Source of the DNA: Microgenomates group bacterium GW2011_GWF2_46_18
GTDB taxonomy: Bacteria > Patescibacteriota > Microgenomatia > UBA1400 > UBA12108
NCBI GenBank assembly: GCA_001002415.1
Contig: LCMB01000002.1
Span: 3,434-53,694, forward strand
Length of the DNA: 50,261 bases
Direction of reading: 5' to 3'
This document shows positions 1,222 through 8,026 of the stretch, in pieces (position 1 is the stretch's first letter; every line of letters starts with the position of its first letter). The translations under genes were made by a program, and so were the position numbers. The notes under the pieces are model-generated. The model saw only the letters and a program-made list of their open reading frames with translations, ran no database searches and was not told where the DNA came from.

Positions 1222-1543
1222 AATGTTTCCCGAGGGAGATACACATATTATACACCTTTTGTGGTTATCGTGGAGCGTAGCTGTGTTGACGGATGAGTAT
1301 TGGTTATGTAGACTACCACGAGTAATCGGAGATCCATAGGCATTTGCGTCTAGAATGATCTCCTTTTGCACCTTAACACTCAGTCAGAATTCTTTGAAAA
1401 GTGGGTTTCACTTTGGGAATTAGTTTATGAGTTCTCAGTGTGAAATCCATTTTAAAAGGAGATAGACACAGATGACCCCACCCTCCACAACATAGTTCTT
1501 TGCATTCAAACAATTCACAATTCACATAACCTAAGGAGATACG

Positions 1544-1738
1544 ATGCAAAAGAAATTTGGTTTTTTGTTCTTTGCCGCAGCATCATTGGCTGCATTGATA
1601 GGCGCCATGGGCGCGGCAGTATCCCAGTTTTGGGGATGTTGTCACAAATGTGACACTTCGGGATGCCACAACCATTGTTGTCGACCGTTTGGCCACCGTG
1701 GCAATAATCACCTGTGTAAGCGTCACGGAGGAGCGTAA
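1544..1738 (+). CDS. Secreted Cys/His-rich mini-protein 1 (64 aa)
   Basis: Strong SD AAGGAG at 1533..1538, 5 nt before the ATG. N-terminal signal-like segment MQKKFGFLFFAAASLAALIGAMGAAVS. The C-terminal 34 aa contain 7 Cys and 6 His (GCCHKCDTSGCHNHCCRPFGHRGNNHLCKRHGGA). Confidence 0.7.
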   Translation: MQKKFGFLFFAAASLAALIGAMGAAVSQFWGCCHKCDTSGCHNHCCRPFGHRGNNHLCKRHGGA

Positions 1739-1740
1739 CA

Positions 1741-1926
1741 ATGAAAATTGTGAAGTTTTTTGTGACAGTTTTCATTTCTGGTTTGGTGGCCGTTGTCTGC
1801 TCTGCTTCTGCAGAGTGGATTTGCCGTGGTAAGTGCAAGAAACATGGCAATCCATGCAAGCGGGGCAAGGGTCATTTGGGAGCCCACAAATGTGGGTTGT
1901 GCACTAATGTGCAGGCATGTGACTGA
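1741..1926 (+). CDS. Secreted Cys-rich cationic mini-protein 2 (61 aa)
   Basis: SD GGAGGA at 1727..1732. Starts 2 nt after the stop of mini-protein 1. Signal peptide MKIVKFFVTVFISGLVAVVCSASA with an AxA-type cleavage motif. The predicted 37-aa mature part has 6 Cys, 6 Lys, 2 Arg and 4 His. Confidence 0.7.
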   Translation: MKIVKFFVTVFISGLVAVVCSASAEWICRGKCKKHGNPCKRGKGHLGAHKCGLCTNVQACD

Positions 1927-1971: not shown

Positions 1972-2035
1972 AGTAAGTTTTCTGAGAAATATATTTTTAG
2001 TTATGAGGAGAGATCGGGTTGTGTGTTAGAACCTT

Positions 2036-3025
2036 TTAGTATATATCTTGCAAGAGCAGAAGTATAAGTCCAATGACGCGATCTTTATCTTTGGGATTAC
2101 TCTCGGCAATTAATATTGTAATAGTCGTGAGCGCGGTTGCGGTAAATTTACTCGTATCGAGTAAATTGTATTTGCGTAATAACCAGATAAAGATAAAGGC
2201 GCCAGAGCGCTTATTCCCATCAACTAAGGGGTGATTTTTGATAACAAAGTATAAGAGATGGGCTGCTTTTTCTTCGATGGTGGGATACAGATCCTCTTTC
2301 CCATATGACTGCAAAATATTCCCCACAATGCTAGCAATCCCACCCCTTTCTCTCTCAATTCCAAAAAACTCACTAGCTATTTGATCGGTGATTAGTGCTT
2401 GCCTGAACTCTTTAAGAATAGTTTTAACCTGTTCTATTGTAAGCACAACTTCTTTGAGTGTTGCACCTTCTTTGGGCATGGTTGATTTGTCATAGGCGTC
2501 GAGTGAGAACCAGGTGGAAGCAAATAGTTTGATGAGTTCAAGTGTTTCTGTGCCCGTGACGCTATTATTTGTAGGGAGTAATCTCTTAACATCTTCGACT
2601 GCGAGTAGGAATTTATCATAATTCCTACTAATCATTTTTTTGTTGATGGTGTAGCCAGTCAAAATATGTGATCGAAGTGTTTTGGTGGCCCAGATACGAA
2701 ACTTGGTTCCTAATACTGAGTTGATTCGATAGCCGACTGCAATTATTAGATCTAAGTTATATGAATAGACTTGTCTCTTTATTTGTCTATTACCTTCTTT
2801 TTGAACTTGTTCCATTTTGGAACATGTTGCCACCTTTTCTAATTCTTGATCATCATAAATGTTAGCAATATGTTTTGTAATAGCTTGGGAGTTGACGCCA
2901 AAAATTTGGGCTATTTGTGCTTGAGTTGCCCAGACGGTGTCGTGATTGTAGTCACCTTTGAGTTCGATGGCACCATCTTTGGCTTGGTATACGATGATTT
3001 GGGATAATTCCCCTGTTTTATTCAT
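2036..3025 (-). CDS. RhuM-family N-terminal domain fused to a Fic/Doc (death-on-curing type) domain
   Basis: The N-terminal part (QAQIAQIFGV...ITKHI...LDLIIAVGYRINS..GTKFRIWAT) resembles RhuM virulence-family proteins. The C-terminal HPLVDGNKRSGA fits the Doc-type motif HxFxDGNKR. Confidence 0.7.
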   Translation of the reverse strand: MNKTGELSQIIVYQAKDGAIELKGDYNHDTVWATQAQIAQIFGVNSQAITKHIANIYDDQELEKVATCSKMEQVQKEGNRQIKRQVYSYNLDLIIAVGYRINSVLGTKFRIWATKTLRSHILTGYTINKKMISRNYDKFLLAVEDVKRLLPTNNSVTGTETLELIKLFASTWFSLDAYDKSTMPKEGATLKEVVLTIEQVKTILKEFRQALITDQIASEFFGIERERGGIASIVGNILQSYGKEDLYPTIEEKAAHLLYFVIKNHPLVDGNKRSGAFIFIWLLRKYNLLDTSKFTATALTTITILIAESNPKDKDRVIGLILLLLQDIY

Positions 3026-3118
3026 GACTTAAATATATACTAAACTGTTATTATCGTGAAAAGTCTAACTCCGTTCAGATATGTTAAATCTAAAAGAGAT
3101 TGAGATCAGGTAGTAGAC

Positions 3119-3220
3119 ATGTTCTGTAACCGAGAAGTAGAGTTTGACATTACCTTGCCCGAGTTACAATCATTTTACGCCGACTTTGGCTTGGTCCCTA
3201 GTTTCCCTATTTCAGATTAG
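3119..3220 (+). CDS. Candidate 33-aa small ORF, paralog of 5089..5187
   Basis: My own translation: MFCNREVEFDITLPELQSFYADFGLVPSFPISD. It shares its start context (attgagatc.ggta..ATGt.ctg) and 10 identities over the 20 aligned residues with the ORF at 5089. It overlaps the 3' end of the convergent hydrolase gene. No clear SD. Confidence 0.3.
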   Translation: MFCNREVEFDITLPELQSFYADFGLVPSFPISD

Positions 3221-3932
3221 TTTTGTACCAATTATCAATTGTATCTATCATAAGTTTTTCAGTCCCCGGTAATTTGCAGGCGTGGTCCGCACCTTTCAGT
3301 AGTTCATAGTCATATTTGATAGAGATTGCTTCCCTATAATCGTCCATGACTTGCTTTGGGACCTCCTGGTCTAGCTCGCAAGCCATAAACAATATCTTGC
3401 CTTGGAACTCACTAATAGCTTTGAGAGCTTTATTATTTTCTTTGGTGTGATGACTGAGTCTGTAGGAGGTAACCTCGCTTTGTTCTTGGGAAAGCTTGGG
3501 TTCGTTCCAACCTTCGTCTGGGTAGAGAGCTGGCGCTTTGAGGAGTATTTTGTCGACTTTTCTTGCTTGAGCGACCAATGTTCCCATGTATCCGCCATAG
3601 CTACTGCCAAAAACCGAGATGTCGGAGGTATCGGCATTTGGTAGGTTTACCATAAAATCATAAGCAGCTAAACAATCGTCTAGATGGTCTTGTCTAGAGA
3701 AAAGAGATAGGTCTCCGCCAGTTTCACCGTGACCTCTCATATCATATAAAACAGCGATATGTCCTGCCTCGACTACTGGTTCTATTCTCACTGGATACCG
3801 TGCCATTGCACTTGTCCAACCGTGAATTACTAAAATTACTGGTCTCTTTCCTGAAAACGTCGGATTTTGTAAGACTAATCCTTTCAGTGTAGAGCCGTTT
3901 GAAAGTGGAATATTTACGTTTGTTGTTTGCAT
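3207..3932 (-). CDS. Alpha/beta hydrolase (dienelactone hydrolase / S9-like)
   Basis: Nucleophile elbow GSSYGG, HGW oxyanion region and a C-terminal GADH motif. Confidence 0.65.
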   Translation of the reverse strand: MQTTNVNIPLSNGSTLKGLVLQNPTFSGKRPVILVIHGWTSAMARYPVRIEPVVEAGHIAVLYDMRGHGETGGDLSLFSRQDHLDDCLAAYDFMVNLPNADTSDISVFGSSYGGYMGTLVAQARKVDKILLKAPALYPDEGWNEPKLSQEQSEVTSYRLSHHTKENNKALKAISEFQGKILFMACELDQEVPKQVMDDYREAISIKYDYELLKGADHACKLPGTEKLMIDTIDNWYKTNLK

Positions 3933-5187: not shown

Positions 5188-6013
5188 GCGATTTCTGTAG
5201 ATACTCGTCTTCTCTGATTCCGCAATATAGATCTTCGAATATCAAACATTTGGCGTAGAATACTGTCCTCACCCTGATTTGTTCTCTGATTTCTGGGGTA
5301 GCATTGTGTTTGGCGAGGACCATGTCGAGTATCCTAGGACCTATATCGCGATAAATCCGTGCAAAATCACAGGCTGGGTCAGCGATTGCGACGCCTCCCC
5401 AATCAATGATCCCACTCACCTTACCATCTGTTACCAGGATATGCTCTATTCCTAGGTCATTGTGACAAAGAACTTTGTTGACCAGTTCATCTTGTGGCTT
5501 TGAGTTAAAAAAGGTCTCTATCTCTGGATAATGCTTGCTTGGAACTAGATGCTTGGTTTTTTCGTAAAAACGATAGCTGTGAGTTTGCCAGTCTGCAAAA
5601 GACTTGTCCTCTATGAGGATGTTGAGATTGTCTAACTCATTTTTAGGAATTGAGTGTAGTTTGTTAAGGAAATCGCCGATTTGCTCTGAAAATGTCTTCC
5701 AAGCGTCAAAATGTGCCATTTCGTATATTAATGGGTTACCCTGTAGCTTTTCGTATCCTACAAAAGAATGATCCGTTGGCAGATAGTCAAATTTTGGATA
5801 TGGCAAAGTACTATATCTACTTAGTACTGGTTGCAAAATGATTTCTTGAGCTAGCTGGATTTGGTTGGCAGGACCCTTGGGATAGCGAAAGACTAGATGA
5901 TCGTTTACCTCATAAGCGATATTGCCTGTCCCTTCGCCAATTTTTACGATTTTGCTTATGGTAAGGTCAGGAAAATTTTTGGAAATTAGTGATTGTGCTG
6001 TGATTTCGTCCAT
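5144..6013 (-). CDS. Aminoglycoside/small-molecule phosphotransferase (APH family kinase)
   Basis: Catalytic loop CHNDLGIEHILV and IDWGGVAIADPACDFA, both typical of the APH/choline-kinase fold. Confidence 0.7.
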   Translation of the reverse strand: MDEITAQSLISKNFPDLTISKIVKIGEGTGNIAYEVNDHLVFRYPKGPANQIQLAQEIILQPVLSRYSTLPYPKFDYLPTDHSFVGYEKLQGNPLIYEMAHFDAWKTFSEQIGDFLNKLHSIPKNELDNLNILIEDKSFADWQTHSYRFYEKTKHLVPSKHYPEIETFFNSKPQDELVNKVLCHNDLGIEHILVTDGKVSGIIDWGGVAIADPACDFARIYRDIGPRILDMVLAKHNATPEIREQIRVRTVFYAKCLIFEDLYCGIREDEYLQKSLKALEWMFDSSPHM

Positions 6014-6042
6014 CTATAGAGTATACACTAAAAATCCTATGT

Positions 6043-6066
6043 CTATATCAAACTATATCATTGGGT
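6043..6066. repeat. 24-bp perfect direct repeat, tRNA-proximal copy
   Basis: Identical to 5023..5046. It overlaps the last 3 nt of tRNA-His and forms its 3' trailer. It lies 29 nt upstream of the APH start codon. Confidence 0.9.
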
Positions 6067-6138
6067 GGGTGAGCGGATTTGAACCGCCTGCCTCATCCTC
6101 CACAGGGACGCGCTCTAACCAAATGAGCTACACCCACC
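6064..6138 (-). tRNA. tRNA-His (GTG)
   Basis: Manual cloverleaf. Encoded G-1 plus acceptor GTGGGTG/CACCCAC and discriminator C. D arm GCTCATTTGGTTAGAGC. Anticodon loop CTGTGGA. T loop TTCAAAT. No encoded CCA. Confidence 0.9.
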
Positions 6139-6153
6139 ACGGTGCACATGCGT

Positions 6154-6159
6154 ATTATA
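6154..6159 (-). promoter_or_regulatory. -10 box TATAAT for tRNA-His
   Basis: RC of attata. Lies 15 nt upstream of G-1. The same TATAATAC context is seen at 6305..6310 and 7825..7832. Confidence 0.5.
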
Positions 6160-6176
6160 ACTCAAAAATAGATATG

Positions 6177-6291
6177 AAAACTCGCTTTACCTGCCTATAG
6201 GCAGGTCTAACCAAATGAGGGCTCCCAGATTACTGCGTATCTGGAGCCATTTCTCAAGTGCCTATGGCACTTGATGTGTACTCCACCCACC
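6177..6291 (-). ncRNA. Candidate chimeric small RNA / pseudo-tRNA: tRNA-His 5' end + twin-hairpin element + tRNA-His D-arm + terminal hairpin
   Basis: Has its own TATAAT box (6305..6310). 15 nt are identical to the tRNA-His leader plus 5' acceptor (6284..6298 vs 6131..6145). 14 nt are identical to the D arm (6206..6219 vs 6114..6127). Hairpins at 6254..6274, 6220..6248 and 6189..6206, then a T-run. No GTG anticodon loop, no T arm and no 3' acceptor strand. Confidence 0.45.
6220..6274 (-). other. Twin-hairpin element, copy 1
   Basis: Gapless 41/55 identity to 33928..33982, with four compensatory base-pair substitutions in the two stems. Confidence 0.7.
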
Positions 6292-6304
6292 ACGGTGCTA
6301 GAGT

Positions 6305-6310
6305 ATTATA
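6305..6310 (-). promoter_or_regulatory. -10 box TATAAT for the tRNA-His-like chimeric RNA
   Basis: RC of attata. Lies 13 nt upstream of the GGTGGGTG start and immediately after the stop of the 6311..6457 ORF. Confidence 0.45.
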
Positions 6311-6457
6311 TCAGTCCCGGGGTTTTTTCTGCAGGATTTCGTTGAGCTGTTGCATAGTTCTCGCAATCAGAGCTAGGCGTTCTTGGGGAGTAAGGTTCTC
6401 CGTTTTTAACTCTTCTGGTGTTTGGGGAGCTTCGTTAGTTGGGGTGAGTGGGTTCAT
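6311..6457 (-). CDS. Small hypothetical protein (48 aa), translationally coupled to the SLT gene
   Basis: My own translation: MNPLTPTNEAPQTPEELKTENLTPQERLALIARTMQQLNEILQKKPRD. Its ATG overlaps the upstream stop as ATGA (6457..6454). It falls below the ORF-track size cutoff. Confidence 0.4.
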   Translation of the reverse strand: MNPLTPTNEAPQTPEELKTENLTPQERLALIARTMQQLNEILQKKPRD

Positions 6458-7047: not shown

Positions 7048-7706
7048 TTCTCTAGTATAGCAATACTTTCGATTTTGACAGGGCTGACGGGACGGGAGTT
7101 CTCCTGCCCATCCTGAACGGTGGGAGCAGTGGCGATTTTGTTAACAGTCTCAATCCCTTTGGTAACCATGCCGAAGATAATGTAGTTAGGAGGGAGAGGA
7201 TAGTCGGCATGCATGATGAAAAATTGACTGCCATTGGTGTTGGGCCCGGCGTTAGCCATGGCGACTACGCCTTTTTTGTACTCACCGGTAAATTTTTCGT
7301 CTGGGAATTGGTAACCTGGCCCACCACTCCCAGTGCCGGTCGGGTCGCCACCTTGGATCATAAAACCGGGAATAGTGCGATGAAAGATCACACCTTCATA
7401 AAATTTCTCTTGGGCGAGAAAGACAAAATTGTTGGTAGTAACCGGAGTAGCGTTAGAAAGAATAATTTCGATCTCGCCAGCGGTAGTTTTGAGAGTGGCA
7501 TAGTAGGTTTTGCCTGATTGGGTAACTTGCTTAGCAGCAGTGTATTGTTTAGAGCTAGAACTTGGCATAGGTGTTTCTTTCGTTGTATTTAATAATGGGG
7601 AGGGACTTGGTGATGGACTGAGGGTAGTTGAGGATGGTTTGACCACTACCCAGGTTATAAGGGCTAGAACCAGAAGTGAAAGAATGATGTTGATAGTATT
7701 GTTCAT
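7044..7706 (-). CDS. Peptidyl-prolyl cis-trans isomerase, cyclophilin type, membrane-anchored
   Basis: FHRTIPGFMIQGGDPTGTGSGGPGYQFPDE and SQFFI cyclophilin motifs. Start trimmed to ATG 7706 (MNNTINIILSLLVLALI) because the longer ORF runs into tRNA-Leu. Confidence 0.85.
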   Translation of the reverse strand: MNNTINIILSLLVLALITWVVVKPSSTTLSPSPSPSPLLNTTKETPMPSSSSKQYTAAKQVTQSGKTYYATLKTTAGEIEIILSNATPVTTNNFVFLAQEKFYEGVIFHRTIPGFMIQGGDPTGTGSGGPGYQFPDEKFTGEYKKGVVAMANAGPNTNGSQFFIMHADYPLPPNYIIFGMVTKGIETVNKIATAPTVQDGQENSRPVSPVKIESIAILEK

Positions 7707-7710
7707 AAGT

Positions 7711-7796
7711 TGGTGCCGAGGGCGGGGATCGAACCCGCATGAGATTACTCTCACAAGTTTTTAAGACTTGAGCGTATACCATTCCGCCACCTCGGC
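7711..7796 (-). tRNA. tRNA-Leu (TAA), long variable arm, CCA encoded
   Basis: Acceptor GCCGAGG/CCTCGGC, anticodon loop CTTAAAA, T loop TTCGATC, 3' ACCA. Confidence 0.9.
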
Positions 7797-7805
7797 ATAG
7801 GCAAA

Positions 7806-7811
7806 ATTATA
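7806..7811 (-). promoter_or_regulatory. -10 box TATAAT for tRNA-Leu
   Basis: RC of attata. Lies 9 nt upstream of the tRNA 5' end and is divergent from the tRNA-Arg promoter. Confidence 0.45.
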
Positions 7812-7821
7812 CAACAAGCCC

Positions 7822-7830
7822 TGGTATAAT
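7822..7830 (+). promoter_or_regulatory. Extended -10 TGgTATAAT for the tRNA-Arg-Pro-Gly cluster
   Basis: tggtataat lies 9 nt upstream of the tRNA-Arg 5' end. Confidence 0.55.
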
Positions 7831-7839
7831 ACTCATAGC

Positions 7840-7913
7840 GCTCCAGTAGCTCAGTTGGATAGAGCACTTGCCTTCTAAGCAGGGGGTCGGAGGTTCGATT
7901 CCTCCCTGGGGCA
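7840..7913 (+). tRNA. tRNA-Arg (TCT)
   Basis: Acceptor GCTCCAG/CTGGGGC, anticodon loop CTTCTAA, T loop TTCGATT. Confidence 0.9.
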
Positions 7914-7919
7914 CTGAGT

Positions 7920-7992
7920 CGGGGTGTGGCTCAGATGGTAAAGCGCCTCGTTTGGGACGAGGAGATCCCCAGTTCGAGTCTGGGCACCCCGA
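7920..7992 (+). tRNA. tRNA-Pro (TGG)
   Basis: Acceptor CGGGGTG/CACCCCG, anticodon stem CCTCG/CGAGG with loop TTTGGGA, T loop TTCGAGT. Confidence 0.9.
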
Positions 7993-8026
7993 CAAGAGTA
8001 AGTGCGCGTGTTAAAATACGCTAGTT

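Follow-up and report, generated by a model that had tools for sequence, protein, structure and literature searches.

A 50,261-nucleotide (nt) stretch of the genome of Microgenomates group bacterium GW2011_GWF2_46_18 (contig LCMB01000002.1, positions 3,434 to 53,694, forward strand), hereafter the window, carries a two-gene operon for small proteins rich in cysteine and histidine. The reading that we tentatively favour is that the operon encodes a pair of cationic paralogues that would be exported by the Sec route, would bind two metal ions via eight Cys/His positions and would be expressed from a leader-controlled cassette. The operon is the payload of this ~700-nt cassette, which consists of a promoter, a ~220-nt leader, a mini-open reading frame (mini-ORF) and a terminator; the leader and the mini-ORF had been overlooked in the first-pass annotation of the window.

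Peptide 1 (1544–1738, forward strand) has 64 residues, of which residues 1 to ~26 are signal-like and are followed by a Cys/His-rich cationic part of 34–37 residues. Peptide 2 (1741–1926, same strand) has 61 residues, with signal-like residues 1–24 (…SASA|EW) preceding a 37-residue part that contains six Cys, three His and eight Lys/Arg. Both ORFs lie where the first-pass annotation had placed them, with the translations it gave and an intergenic gap of 2 nt, and its strong Shine–Dalgarno (SD) sites are present: AAGGAG at 1533–1538, 5 nt before the ATG at 1544, and GGAGGAG at 1727–1733, 7 nt before the ATG at 1741. Its description of the surroundings did not hold up. The supposed AT-rich patch begins only downstream (2000–3500, 36–40% G+C), the locus itself having 44–46% G+C against a genome mean of 46.5%, and the closest tRNA gene, for His (6063–6137), is 4.1 kb away rather than adjacent.

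A search for the pair in related genomes recovered it, giving four independent two-gene operons in total: the window, L036/L037, L040/L041 and L046. An exhaustive HMMER search of 1.84 billion representative proteins gave a sole true match (E 5e-6), the 57-residue peptide 1 homologue P0003 (L036:2085–2258). The contig that holds it, L036, contains the same two-gene operon, whose second gene had previously been missed because the gene caller chose the antisense strand. The operon in L040/L041 (Joint Genome Institute metagenomes) and the locus L042 (contig JAJYKS010000002.1 of G008, a GenBank metagenome-assembled genome) were found by a DNA pattern built on the conserved upstream region, and the L046 operon in genome G015 by a covariance model of the leader. 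The resulting nine-sequence family comprises five gene-1 and four gene-2 members; eight of them bear a signal, and the ninth is the payload of one of two L042 cassettes (L042B). Further searches added no members. A word-indexed search of 5.8 billion clustered proteins with each peptide and with a peptide 1/P0003 profile recovered only the queries and P0003; protein-pattern scans yielded zero confirmed relatives in metagenome and genome contigs and nothing in viral contigs; and Pfam, NCBIfam and PDB sequence searches with the peptides returned nothing significant. Several candidates were dismissed: P0004 and P0005 from the HMMER search as low-complexity repeats, six-frame matches to each peptide in 40 relatives (E 0.004–0.3) as out of frame within large genes, and the DNA-pattern matches L039 and L043 as chance hits with no further cassette feature.

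The additional operons bear out the earlier proposal that the two genes are real and co-transcribed, and show that they are kept elsewhere. Starts, SD sites, signal-like N termini and a 1–4-nt gene junction are preserved across all four. The pair also stands out within its own genome (674 kb in 24 contigs, 89% complete): a six-frame census counted 3356 ORFs of 40–110 residues, 35 of which passed a crude signal-peptide rule, and among those 35 only peptides 1 and 2 are Cys-rich, with seven Cys each versus two in the runner-up. Between operons, the proportion of synonymous differences (pS) is saturated at 0.72–0.95, and the nonsynonymous proportion (pN) is 0.19–0.44 for complete genes; two conserved blocks have pN values of 0.13 and 0.26. 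Peptide 1 and P0003 are 57% identical, with a pN/pS of 0.30 at a pS of 0.86 in the conserved block; peptide 2 and its L040 homologue (L040:4288–4467) share ~31 of 37 mature residues and are 71% identical over their full length (pS 0.75, pN 0.13). Judging from these alignments, the two sense ORFs are real genes, and purifying selection acts on both. Near-identical contigs come from the groundwater metagenome PRJNA268031, and two other assemblies of the same species show zero substitutions within the operon.

The two peptides are also related to each other. Comparison of the gene-1 family with the gene-2 family by hhalign gave a probability of 94% (E 1.3e-7), and a composition-preserving shuffle test on the mature parts of both window peptides gave p = 0.034. 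On this comparison, the gene pair is an old tandem duplication and peptides 1 and 2 are paralogues.

What the family has conserved is mainly a set of Cys and His residues. The invariant columns of the nine-sequence alignment are Met1, three Cys and two His, so that Cys/His account for five of the six. The invariant His are H51 and H56 in peptide 1 and H45 and H49 in peptide 2. The mature parts of all nine members follow the scaffold C-x3-C, x(2-10), [C/H]-x3-C, x(4-6), H, x(2-5), H-x-C, x(2-3), [H/C], with eight ligand-like positions common to all of them (9/9). Exchange at these positions is confined to three sites: at the third, seven members have Cys, and peptide 2 and its L040 homologue have His; at the seventh, eight members have Cys and one has Asp; and at the eighth, peptide 2 has Cys where the others have His. 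A twin C-x3-C motif is present in seven of the nine. Cys counts are 7, 5, 6, 5 and 4 in the gene-1 family and 6, 5, 5 and 6 in the gene-2 family; they are odd in five of nine members, and the sums per operon are odd in three of four operons.

The invariant His residues, the exchange of Cys, His and Asp at fixed positions and the odd Cys counts favour metal coordination over a fixed disulfide knot, and eight ligand positions would make two four-ligand sites. Among the three roles suggested in the first-pass annotation (antimicrobial, effector or metal-binding peptide), metal binding thus gains most, as far as the invariant Cys/His columns, the Cys–His swaps and the often-odd Cys counts can indicate. 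Its description of peptide 2 as disulfide-knot or defensin-like fared less well: the last Cys of the peptide is not conserved, it has relatives with five Cys, and no fold match was obtained. A defensin-like or knottin scaffold, with its fixed six or eight Cys, was rejected for the family as a whole, given counts of 4–7, odd in five of nine members, and His or Asp replacing Cys at conserved columns.

Zinc ribbons and small Cys/His knuckles (eS31/S27a, Rpb9/TFIIS, NudC) and the metallothioneins SmtA and BmtA are cytoplasmic and have no signal peptides. The family described here resembles them in its short domains of closely spaced Cys pairs and His ligands, in which Cys/His substitution is tolerated. 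It differs from the ribbons in the spacing of its knuckles, which is C-x3-C rather than C-x2-C, and has no significant similarity to them; unlike bacterial metallothionein, whose Cys9His2-3 cluster is cytosolic, its peptides carry an export signal. As stated in the first-pass annotation, Pfam and NCBIfam contain no bacteriocin, lanthipeptide or metallothionein family that matches the peptides, and the bacterial metallothionein (SmtA/BmtA) profile gave no Pfam or NCBIfam match at E values up to 1 or 10. Hidden Markov model and structure-based searches of the mature regions revealed no significant family or fold. Below threshold, most Pfam and PDB profile matches are to zinc ribbons or fingers; the best Pfam match has E 0.0096, in one of the nine members, and a PDB profile match to the eS31 ribbon has E 0.28. 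Nearly all non-significant Foldseek neighbours are zinc ribbons or fingers as well, which we treat as no more than a weak hint.

Export is suggested by the N termini. The signal layout was scored by a manual rule, and by that rule the Sec-type signal peptide proposed earlier is preserved in eight of eight signal-bearing homologues. Each has 2–6 Lys/Arg, then 15–23 uncharged residues (mean Kyte–Doolittle value 1.8–3.2) and small residues at −1 and −3, with A, G or S at −1. The tails that follow have 36–48 residues, a net charge of +3 to +6, 5–7 Cys and 3–7 His. A lipobox ([LVI][ASTVI][GAS]C) is not present in either window peptide: the corresponding residues are …AVVC in peptide 2, where −1 is Val, and FWGC in peptide 1; moreover, the Cys of …AVVC is missing in the L040 homologue (…VVNAAA). 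The genome carries two type I signal peptidase (Peptidase_S26) genes and two DsbA-like proteins, which makes export and cleavage plausible and extracellular disulfides possible; VKOR was not found in this 89% complete genome. The signal, with its basic n-region, hydrophobic core and small −1/−3 residues, would thus insert with the N terminus inside and direct export. Cleavage, most likely by type I signal peptidase and predicted near AAV|SQ or ASA|EW, would release or expose a cationic mini-domain of 34–37 residues outside the membrane. There, the eight positions most likely hold two metal ions in the manner of zinc-ribbon-like knuckles, and the peptides would be extracytoplasmic metal-binding or metal-stabilized mini-proteins, perhaps acting as a pair. 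Their role could be metal capture or buffering, or the metals could stabilize a fold that has another activity.

The non-coding DNA around the operon is more conserved than the coding DNA in the locus alignment, and promoter, hairpins, mini-ORF and terminator can be aligned in six cassettes. A promoter scan identified a sigma-70-type promoter (TTGACG-17 nt-TAGACT) at 1286–1314 on the forward strand, on which all cassette elements of the window lie, with a transcription start inferred near 1321; the same promoter occupies the equivalent place in the aligned sequences of L036, L040, L046 and both L042 cassettes. Leader hairpin 1 (GGAGATC…GATCTCC, 1328–1363) was identified with RNAalifold in alignments of five and seven cassettes, and several of its pairs are kept by two-sided changes, for example AU/CG/UG and GC/AU. 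It is followed by a conserved box, ACTCAGTCAG (1378–1387), found by pattern scans of the genome and loci and in the alignments, and by leader hairpin 2 (1397–1453), in which a stem GG[G/A]TTTCAC…GTGAAATCC encloses an inner stem-loop TTTGGGAATTA…. Hairpin 2 is nearly invariant in six cassettes; in a diverged seventh, L047, both arms co-change (UA to AU, UA to GC and UA to CG). Altogether, 11 base pairs are preserved via changes on both sides. Leader identity among the five close cassettes is 62–75% overall and 71–86% from hairpin 2 to the mini-ORF. Because adjacent synonymous sites are saturated, the leader owes its conservation to selection and not to recent transfer. Rfam 15 contains no match to it; the best was a miRNA precursor model (E 0.48), far below the gathering score.

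Downstream of hairpin 2, an SD site (AAGGAG, 1456–1461) precedes a seven-codon mini-ORF at 1472–1495 (ATG ACC CCA CCC TCC ACA ACA TAG, encoding MTPPSTT*). A mini-ORF of seven or eight codons with the pattern M-x-P-P is present in five cassettes: MTPPSTT in the window, and MNPPYHI, MIPPRKFL, MIPPDTM and MKPPYHV elsewhere. Its fourth codon reads CCC, CCG, CCT, CCA and CCG, such that all four Pro codons are used, and the L046 copy has lost one Pro through a 3-nt deletion that leaves frame and stop intact. The synonymous variation at an invariant Pro site and the retention of frame in L046 lend good support to translation of the mini-ORF. Between its stop codon and the SD site of gene 1 lies a G-poor, C/A-rich spacer (1496–1532) with a single G in 37 nt. 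The spacer is unstructured; it folds no better than shuffled sequence in six of six cassettes, and no attenuator hairpin was found between mini-ORF and gene 1.

At the other end of the operon, a 3′ module (1919–1982) resembles an intrinsic terminator: GTGACTGAGTAAGT, a hairpin at 1934–1971, GGTTCAGTAAGT and a T run. The perfect 12-bp hairpin GAACCTGTGACG/CGTCACAGGTTC described in the first-pass annotation lies within 1934–1971 and can be extended to 16 pairs followed by a T-rich tail, which gives it the appearance of a terminator. In its general form the module reads CTGACTGAGTAAGT, hairpin, GGTTCAGTCAGT, T run, and this framework is kept in L036, L040, both L042 cassettes and L046, with one compensatory change of a T-A to a C-G pair. 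The leader box ACTCAGTCAG and the conserved CTGACTGAGT, located where the payload ends (1919–1932), are exact reverse complements of one another, and TCAGTCAGT reappears right after the terminator hairpin in most cassettes. Such complementarity could reflect long-range 5′–3′ pairing within the mRNA, an extended terminator stem, or a boundary at which payloads are recombined or exchanged.

Leader-peptide attenuators that use proline codons or stalling mini-ORFs include Salmonella mgtL and mgtP and E. coli tnaC. The cassette leader resembles these in having a short ORF with its own SD site in a long 5′ leader and a conserved Pro-Pro, followed by a G-poor, unstructured stretch that could serve for Rho loading. 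It differs in the length of the mini-ORF, which has seven or eight codons here, in the two conserved hairpins upstream and in matching no Rfam family; alternative terminator and antiterminator hairpins are not evident downstream of the mini-ORF. Transcription from the sigma-70-type promoter would yield an RNA composed of the leader with its two hairpins, the M-x-P-P mini-ORF, the G-poor spacer, the payload and the intrinsic terminator. The behaviour of the ribosome on the Pro-Pro mini-ORF would then gate downstream expression, for example by controlling access of Rho to the spacer; a rho gene is present in the genome. Leaders with proline codons, transcription–translation coupling that depends on elongation factor P (EF-P; PMC5021804) and the intergenic small ORF of mgtCBR (PMC8092293) are known analogues.

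The cassette has a patchy distribution. Leader and peptides occur together in three of 24 family genomes (G000, G008 and G015) and in two unbinned metagenomic lineages (L036 and L040), and a single genome from a different family, G202, has a diverged leader. Searches of 286 genomes of the order and a 401-genome sample of the class with the leader model and the peptide profile added nothing to G000, G008, G015 and G202, and no cassette or peptide was found in viral contigs. Genome G008 carries two cassettes in L042, at 1123–1750 (−) and 5694–6333 (−), which lie 4.6 kb apart and flank a methyltransferase and other defence-like genes. The payload of copy A is an unrelated 76-residue protein with no signal peptide and one Cys. 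That of copy B has 83 residues and the same Cys/His core, and ends in GHEWS, as does the product of L040 gene 1; where a Sec signal would be expected, its N-terminal part consists of 50 non-hydrophobic residues ending …DGGQG, and an 11-codon remnant stands where gene 2 would be. The diverged leader of G202 (L047, 1501–1665 (−)) precedes a very basic 159-residue protein that matches no Pfam family; hairpin 2 of this leader is altered on both arms (GGATAGCAC…GTGCTATACC), and a Met-x-Pro-Pro mini-ORF is not obvious.

From its neighbours, the cassette tends toward defence or variable islands. The window operon is flanked by an ATP-grasp gene and by a RhuM-Fic/Doc fusion gene directly downstream of the cassette (2036–3025 (−)). 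Its neighbours in L040 are a Type ISP restriction enzyme, enolase and a 127-residue RhuM fragment (7633–8016), the last located 3 kb downstream of the cassette, beyond the Type ISP restriction-modification gene. The L036 operon lies near NUDIX and APH-type kinase genes, and that of L046 near a membrane protein gene. The L036 kinase (2–667) is 74% identical to a kinase in the window (5348–6013 (−)) and is found on the opposite side of the operon, indicating that the island was rearranged between the two lineages.

Several observations weigh against metal-binding exported peptides under leader control. Regarding the genes, a codon-usage model trained on the genome does not favour the two ORFs, for which it is uninformative because their composition is extremely skewed. 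Export is made less certain by the 22-residue hydrophobic core of peptide 1, which could be an uncleaved membrane anchor, and by the Arg or Lys that several homologues carry among the first three residues (+1 to +3) after the predicted cleavage site, which is suboptimal for Sec export. As for metals, extracytoplasmic Cys-rich metal sites are unusual, disulfides could form with the help of the two DsbA-like proteins, and the Cys/His swaps could reflect rewiring of disulfides; no metal-transport or metal-regulator gene is linked to the operon in any examined context. AlphaFold2 models of both peptides, computed from the nine-sequence alignment, show an N-terminal helix, and the mature parts have low confidence (predicted local distance difference test scores of 49–69); Foldseek searches of the PDB with these low-confidence models found nothing at E ≤0.001, all matches having E ≥3.8. 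Finally, the leader shows no specificity for the peptide family, the L042A and L047 payloads being neither secreted nor Cys-rich, and the Pro-Pro is lost from the L046 mini-ORF.

The strongest competitor, which we consider doubtful, is that the products are disulfide-stabilized secreted cationic peptides acting on other cells, either as a Sec-dependent two-peptide bacteriocin or as an episymbiont host effector, with Cys forming disulfides and His tuning charge or activity. Class IIb and Sec-dependent class II bacteriocins (lactococcin G and plantaricin EF; enterocin P and lactococcin 972) offer parallels: genes for small cationic peptides paired in one operon, export leaders, location in accessory DNA and fast-evolving mature sequences. 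The window peptides are likewise adjacent, co-transcribed and paralogous, each with an export signal; their mature sequences diverge fast between genomes in which the regulatory DNA is conserved, and they occur in variable regions near restriction-modification and RhuM/Doc genes. The DsbA-like proteins and the twin C-x3-C motif also fit. Yet only two genes lie between leader and terminator in four of four operons, with no transporter nearby and no immunity gene in or next to any of them. The C39-peptidase ABC exporter and GxxxG motifs of class IIb systems are absent as well, the Sec-type members have no double glycine, no bacteriocin or antimicrobial-peptide family is matched, and the extreme Cys/His content with conserved ligand-like positions sets these peptides apart from class II bacteriocins. 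Two invariant His, swaps of Cys for His or Asp, and odd Cys counts per member and per operon would be unexpected in a pure disulfide scaffold.

Helical hairpins with twin C-x3-C motifs are found in plant alpha-hairpinins such as EcAMP1 and in mitochondrial small Tim proteins. Seven of the nine family members share with these the C-x3-C…C-x3-C arrangement, and the small, basic and probably exported peptides of the family form a tandem duplication. In contrast to the hairpins, however, the linker between the two motifs has only 2–10 residues, the third Cys is His in two members, an extra invariant His-…-His-x-Cys is present, and AlphaFold predicts no helices in the mature parts, albeit with low confidence.

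It is improbable, though worth weighing, that the N terminus stays uncleaved and that the products are small single-pass membrane proteins. These could be type I toxin-like, with the leader, mini-ORF and 5′–3′ pairing restraining translation in a hok/mok-like manner, or a membrane-tethered Cys/His knuckle that partners an envelope protein. The hydrophobic stretches of 15–23 residues are of membrane-spanning length, the 5′ leader is long, conserved and structured, with an upstream mini-ORF, its 10-nt box complements the conserved box at the 3′ end in every position, and the cassette occurs patchily in accessory islands, twice in one genome. Small residues are nevertheless kept at −1 and −3 after every hydrophobic core, and the C-terminal domains are long (36–48 residues) and Cys/His-conserved, unlike typical type I toxins. 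A consensus scan of four cassettes found no conserved antisense promoter or antisense RNA signal, and two cassettes hold non-membrane payloads.

We consider it very improbable that the peptides are precursors of ribosomally synthesized and post-translationally modified peptides (RiPPs), processed in a graspetide-like pathway by the enzyme encoded by the divergent ATP-grasp gene (145–1371 (−)). That gene is RimK-like (E 5e-9) and stands head-to-head with the operon, and in the L042B payload the Cys/His core is preceded by a long N-terminal part that is not of the Sec type. ATP-grasp orthologues are present in 16 of 41 relatives, however, and a Cys-rich small ORF adjoins none of the 16, which leaves the proposed link unsupported. 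The three other operons occupy different neighbourhoods with no ATP-grasp, Lan or radical-SAM maturase adjacent; L040 does contain a radical-SAM gene, with Radical_SAM, Radical_SAM_C and GNAT domains, which we take to be Elp3-like. In addition, Sec signals are not RiPP leaders, and the Ser/Thr-Asp/Glu or Lys-Asp/Glu patterns of graspetide cores are absent.

That the two ORFs are chance frames, or that a 117-residue antisense frame (1515–1868) is the real gene, is hardly credible: the combination of a signal-like N terminus and high Cys content occurs in two of the 3356 small ORFs, namely these, and the antisense frame, which the codon-usage model slightly prefers (+0.03 versus −0.07 per codon), is broken into pieces of 29–68 residues in L036, where a gene caller adopted an antisense ORF, and has no conserved start, stop or SD site, whereas the sense ORFs and their Cys/His columns are intact in four operons. 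What keeps the antisense frame open is simply that no Cys or His codon yields a stop in the antisense direction, and the equally low pN/pS of this frame cannot be used to reject it because the wobble positions are common to both frames; it is the integrity of the ORFs across loci that settles the question.

Some features of the adjoining sequence deserve mention in their own right. The start codon of the ATP-grasp ORF is probably the ATG at 1221 (MKNIVKLDVLVVYS…) and not the GTG at 1371, as its orthologues align only from residue 45–55 onwards and another assembly calls a 358-residue product. With this start, the intergenic region upstream of the peptide operon measures 322 nt. Within the same gene, positions 640–676 contain seven substitutions in 37 nt relative to L010, a contig from the same project that is 99.8% identical; the rest of the 2.9-kb overlap is identical. 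Recombination at the strain level or a chimeric assembly may account for the cluster. Just before the window start, contig C2 has a 94-base N run (3340–3433), and L010 spans this gap, which it could close.

Ultra-small Patescibacteria depend on other microbes or live attached to them. To our knowledge, hardly anything has been learned about their exported molecules, and we know of no experimental study of regulation in this group. The operon adds a new family of predicted exported mini-proteins that is defined by eight conserved Cys/His positions and matches nothing described, and whose mature peptides of 34–37 residues are short enough for synthesis and direct testing of metal binding, fold and activity. 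It also illustrates gaps in annotation, with one homologue among 1.84 billion representatives and the antisense strand called in one relative. The cassette of leader and mini-ORF is a more unexpected result than the peptide pair: its new leader RNA, which is compact and includes a Pro-Pro mini-ORF, is a tractable candidate regulatory element, and the leader and the cassette architecture would still be the more interesting part should the peptides prove no more than common secreted toxins or membrane anchors. A bolder proposal, which we regard as unlikely, is that the cassette is portable, undescribed and lineage-specific. Its new leader, comprising two hairpins and a Met-x-Pro-Pro arrest mini-ORF and possibly involving EF-P or Rho, would switch interchangeable payloads, mainly a fast-diverging pair of exported two-metal Cys/His ‘knuckle’ peptides used for trace-metal capture or acting on hosts. 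If this were true, the peptides would represent a new class of extracellular metallopeptides in host-dependent bacteria.

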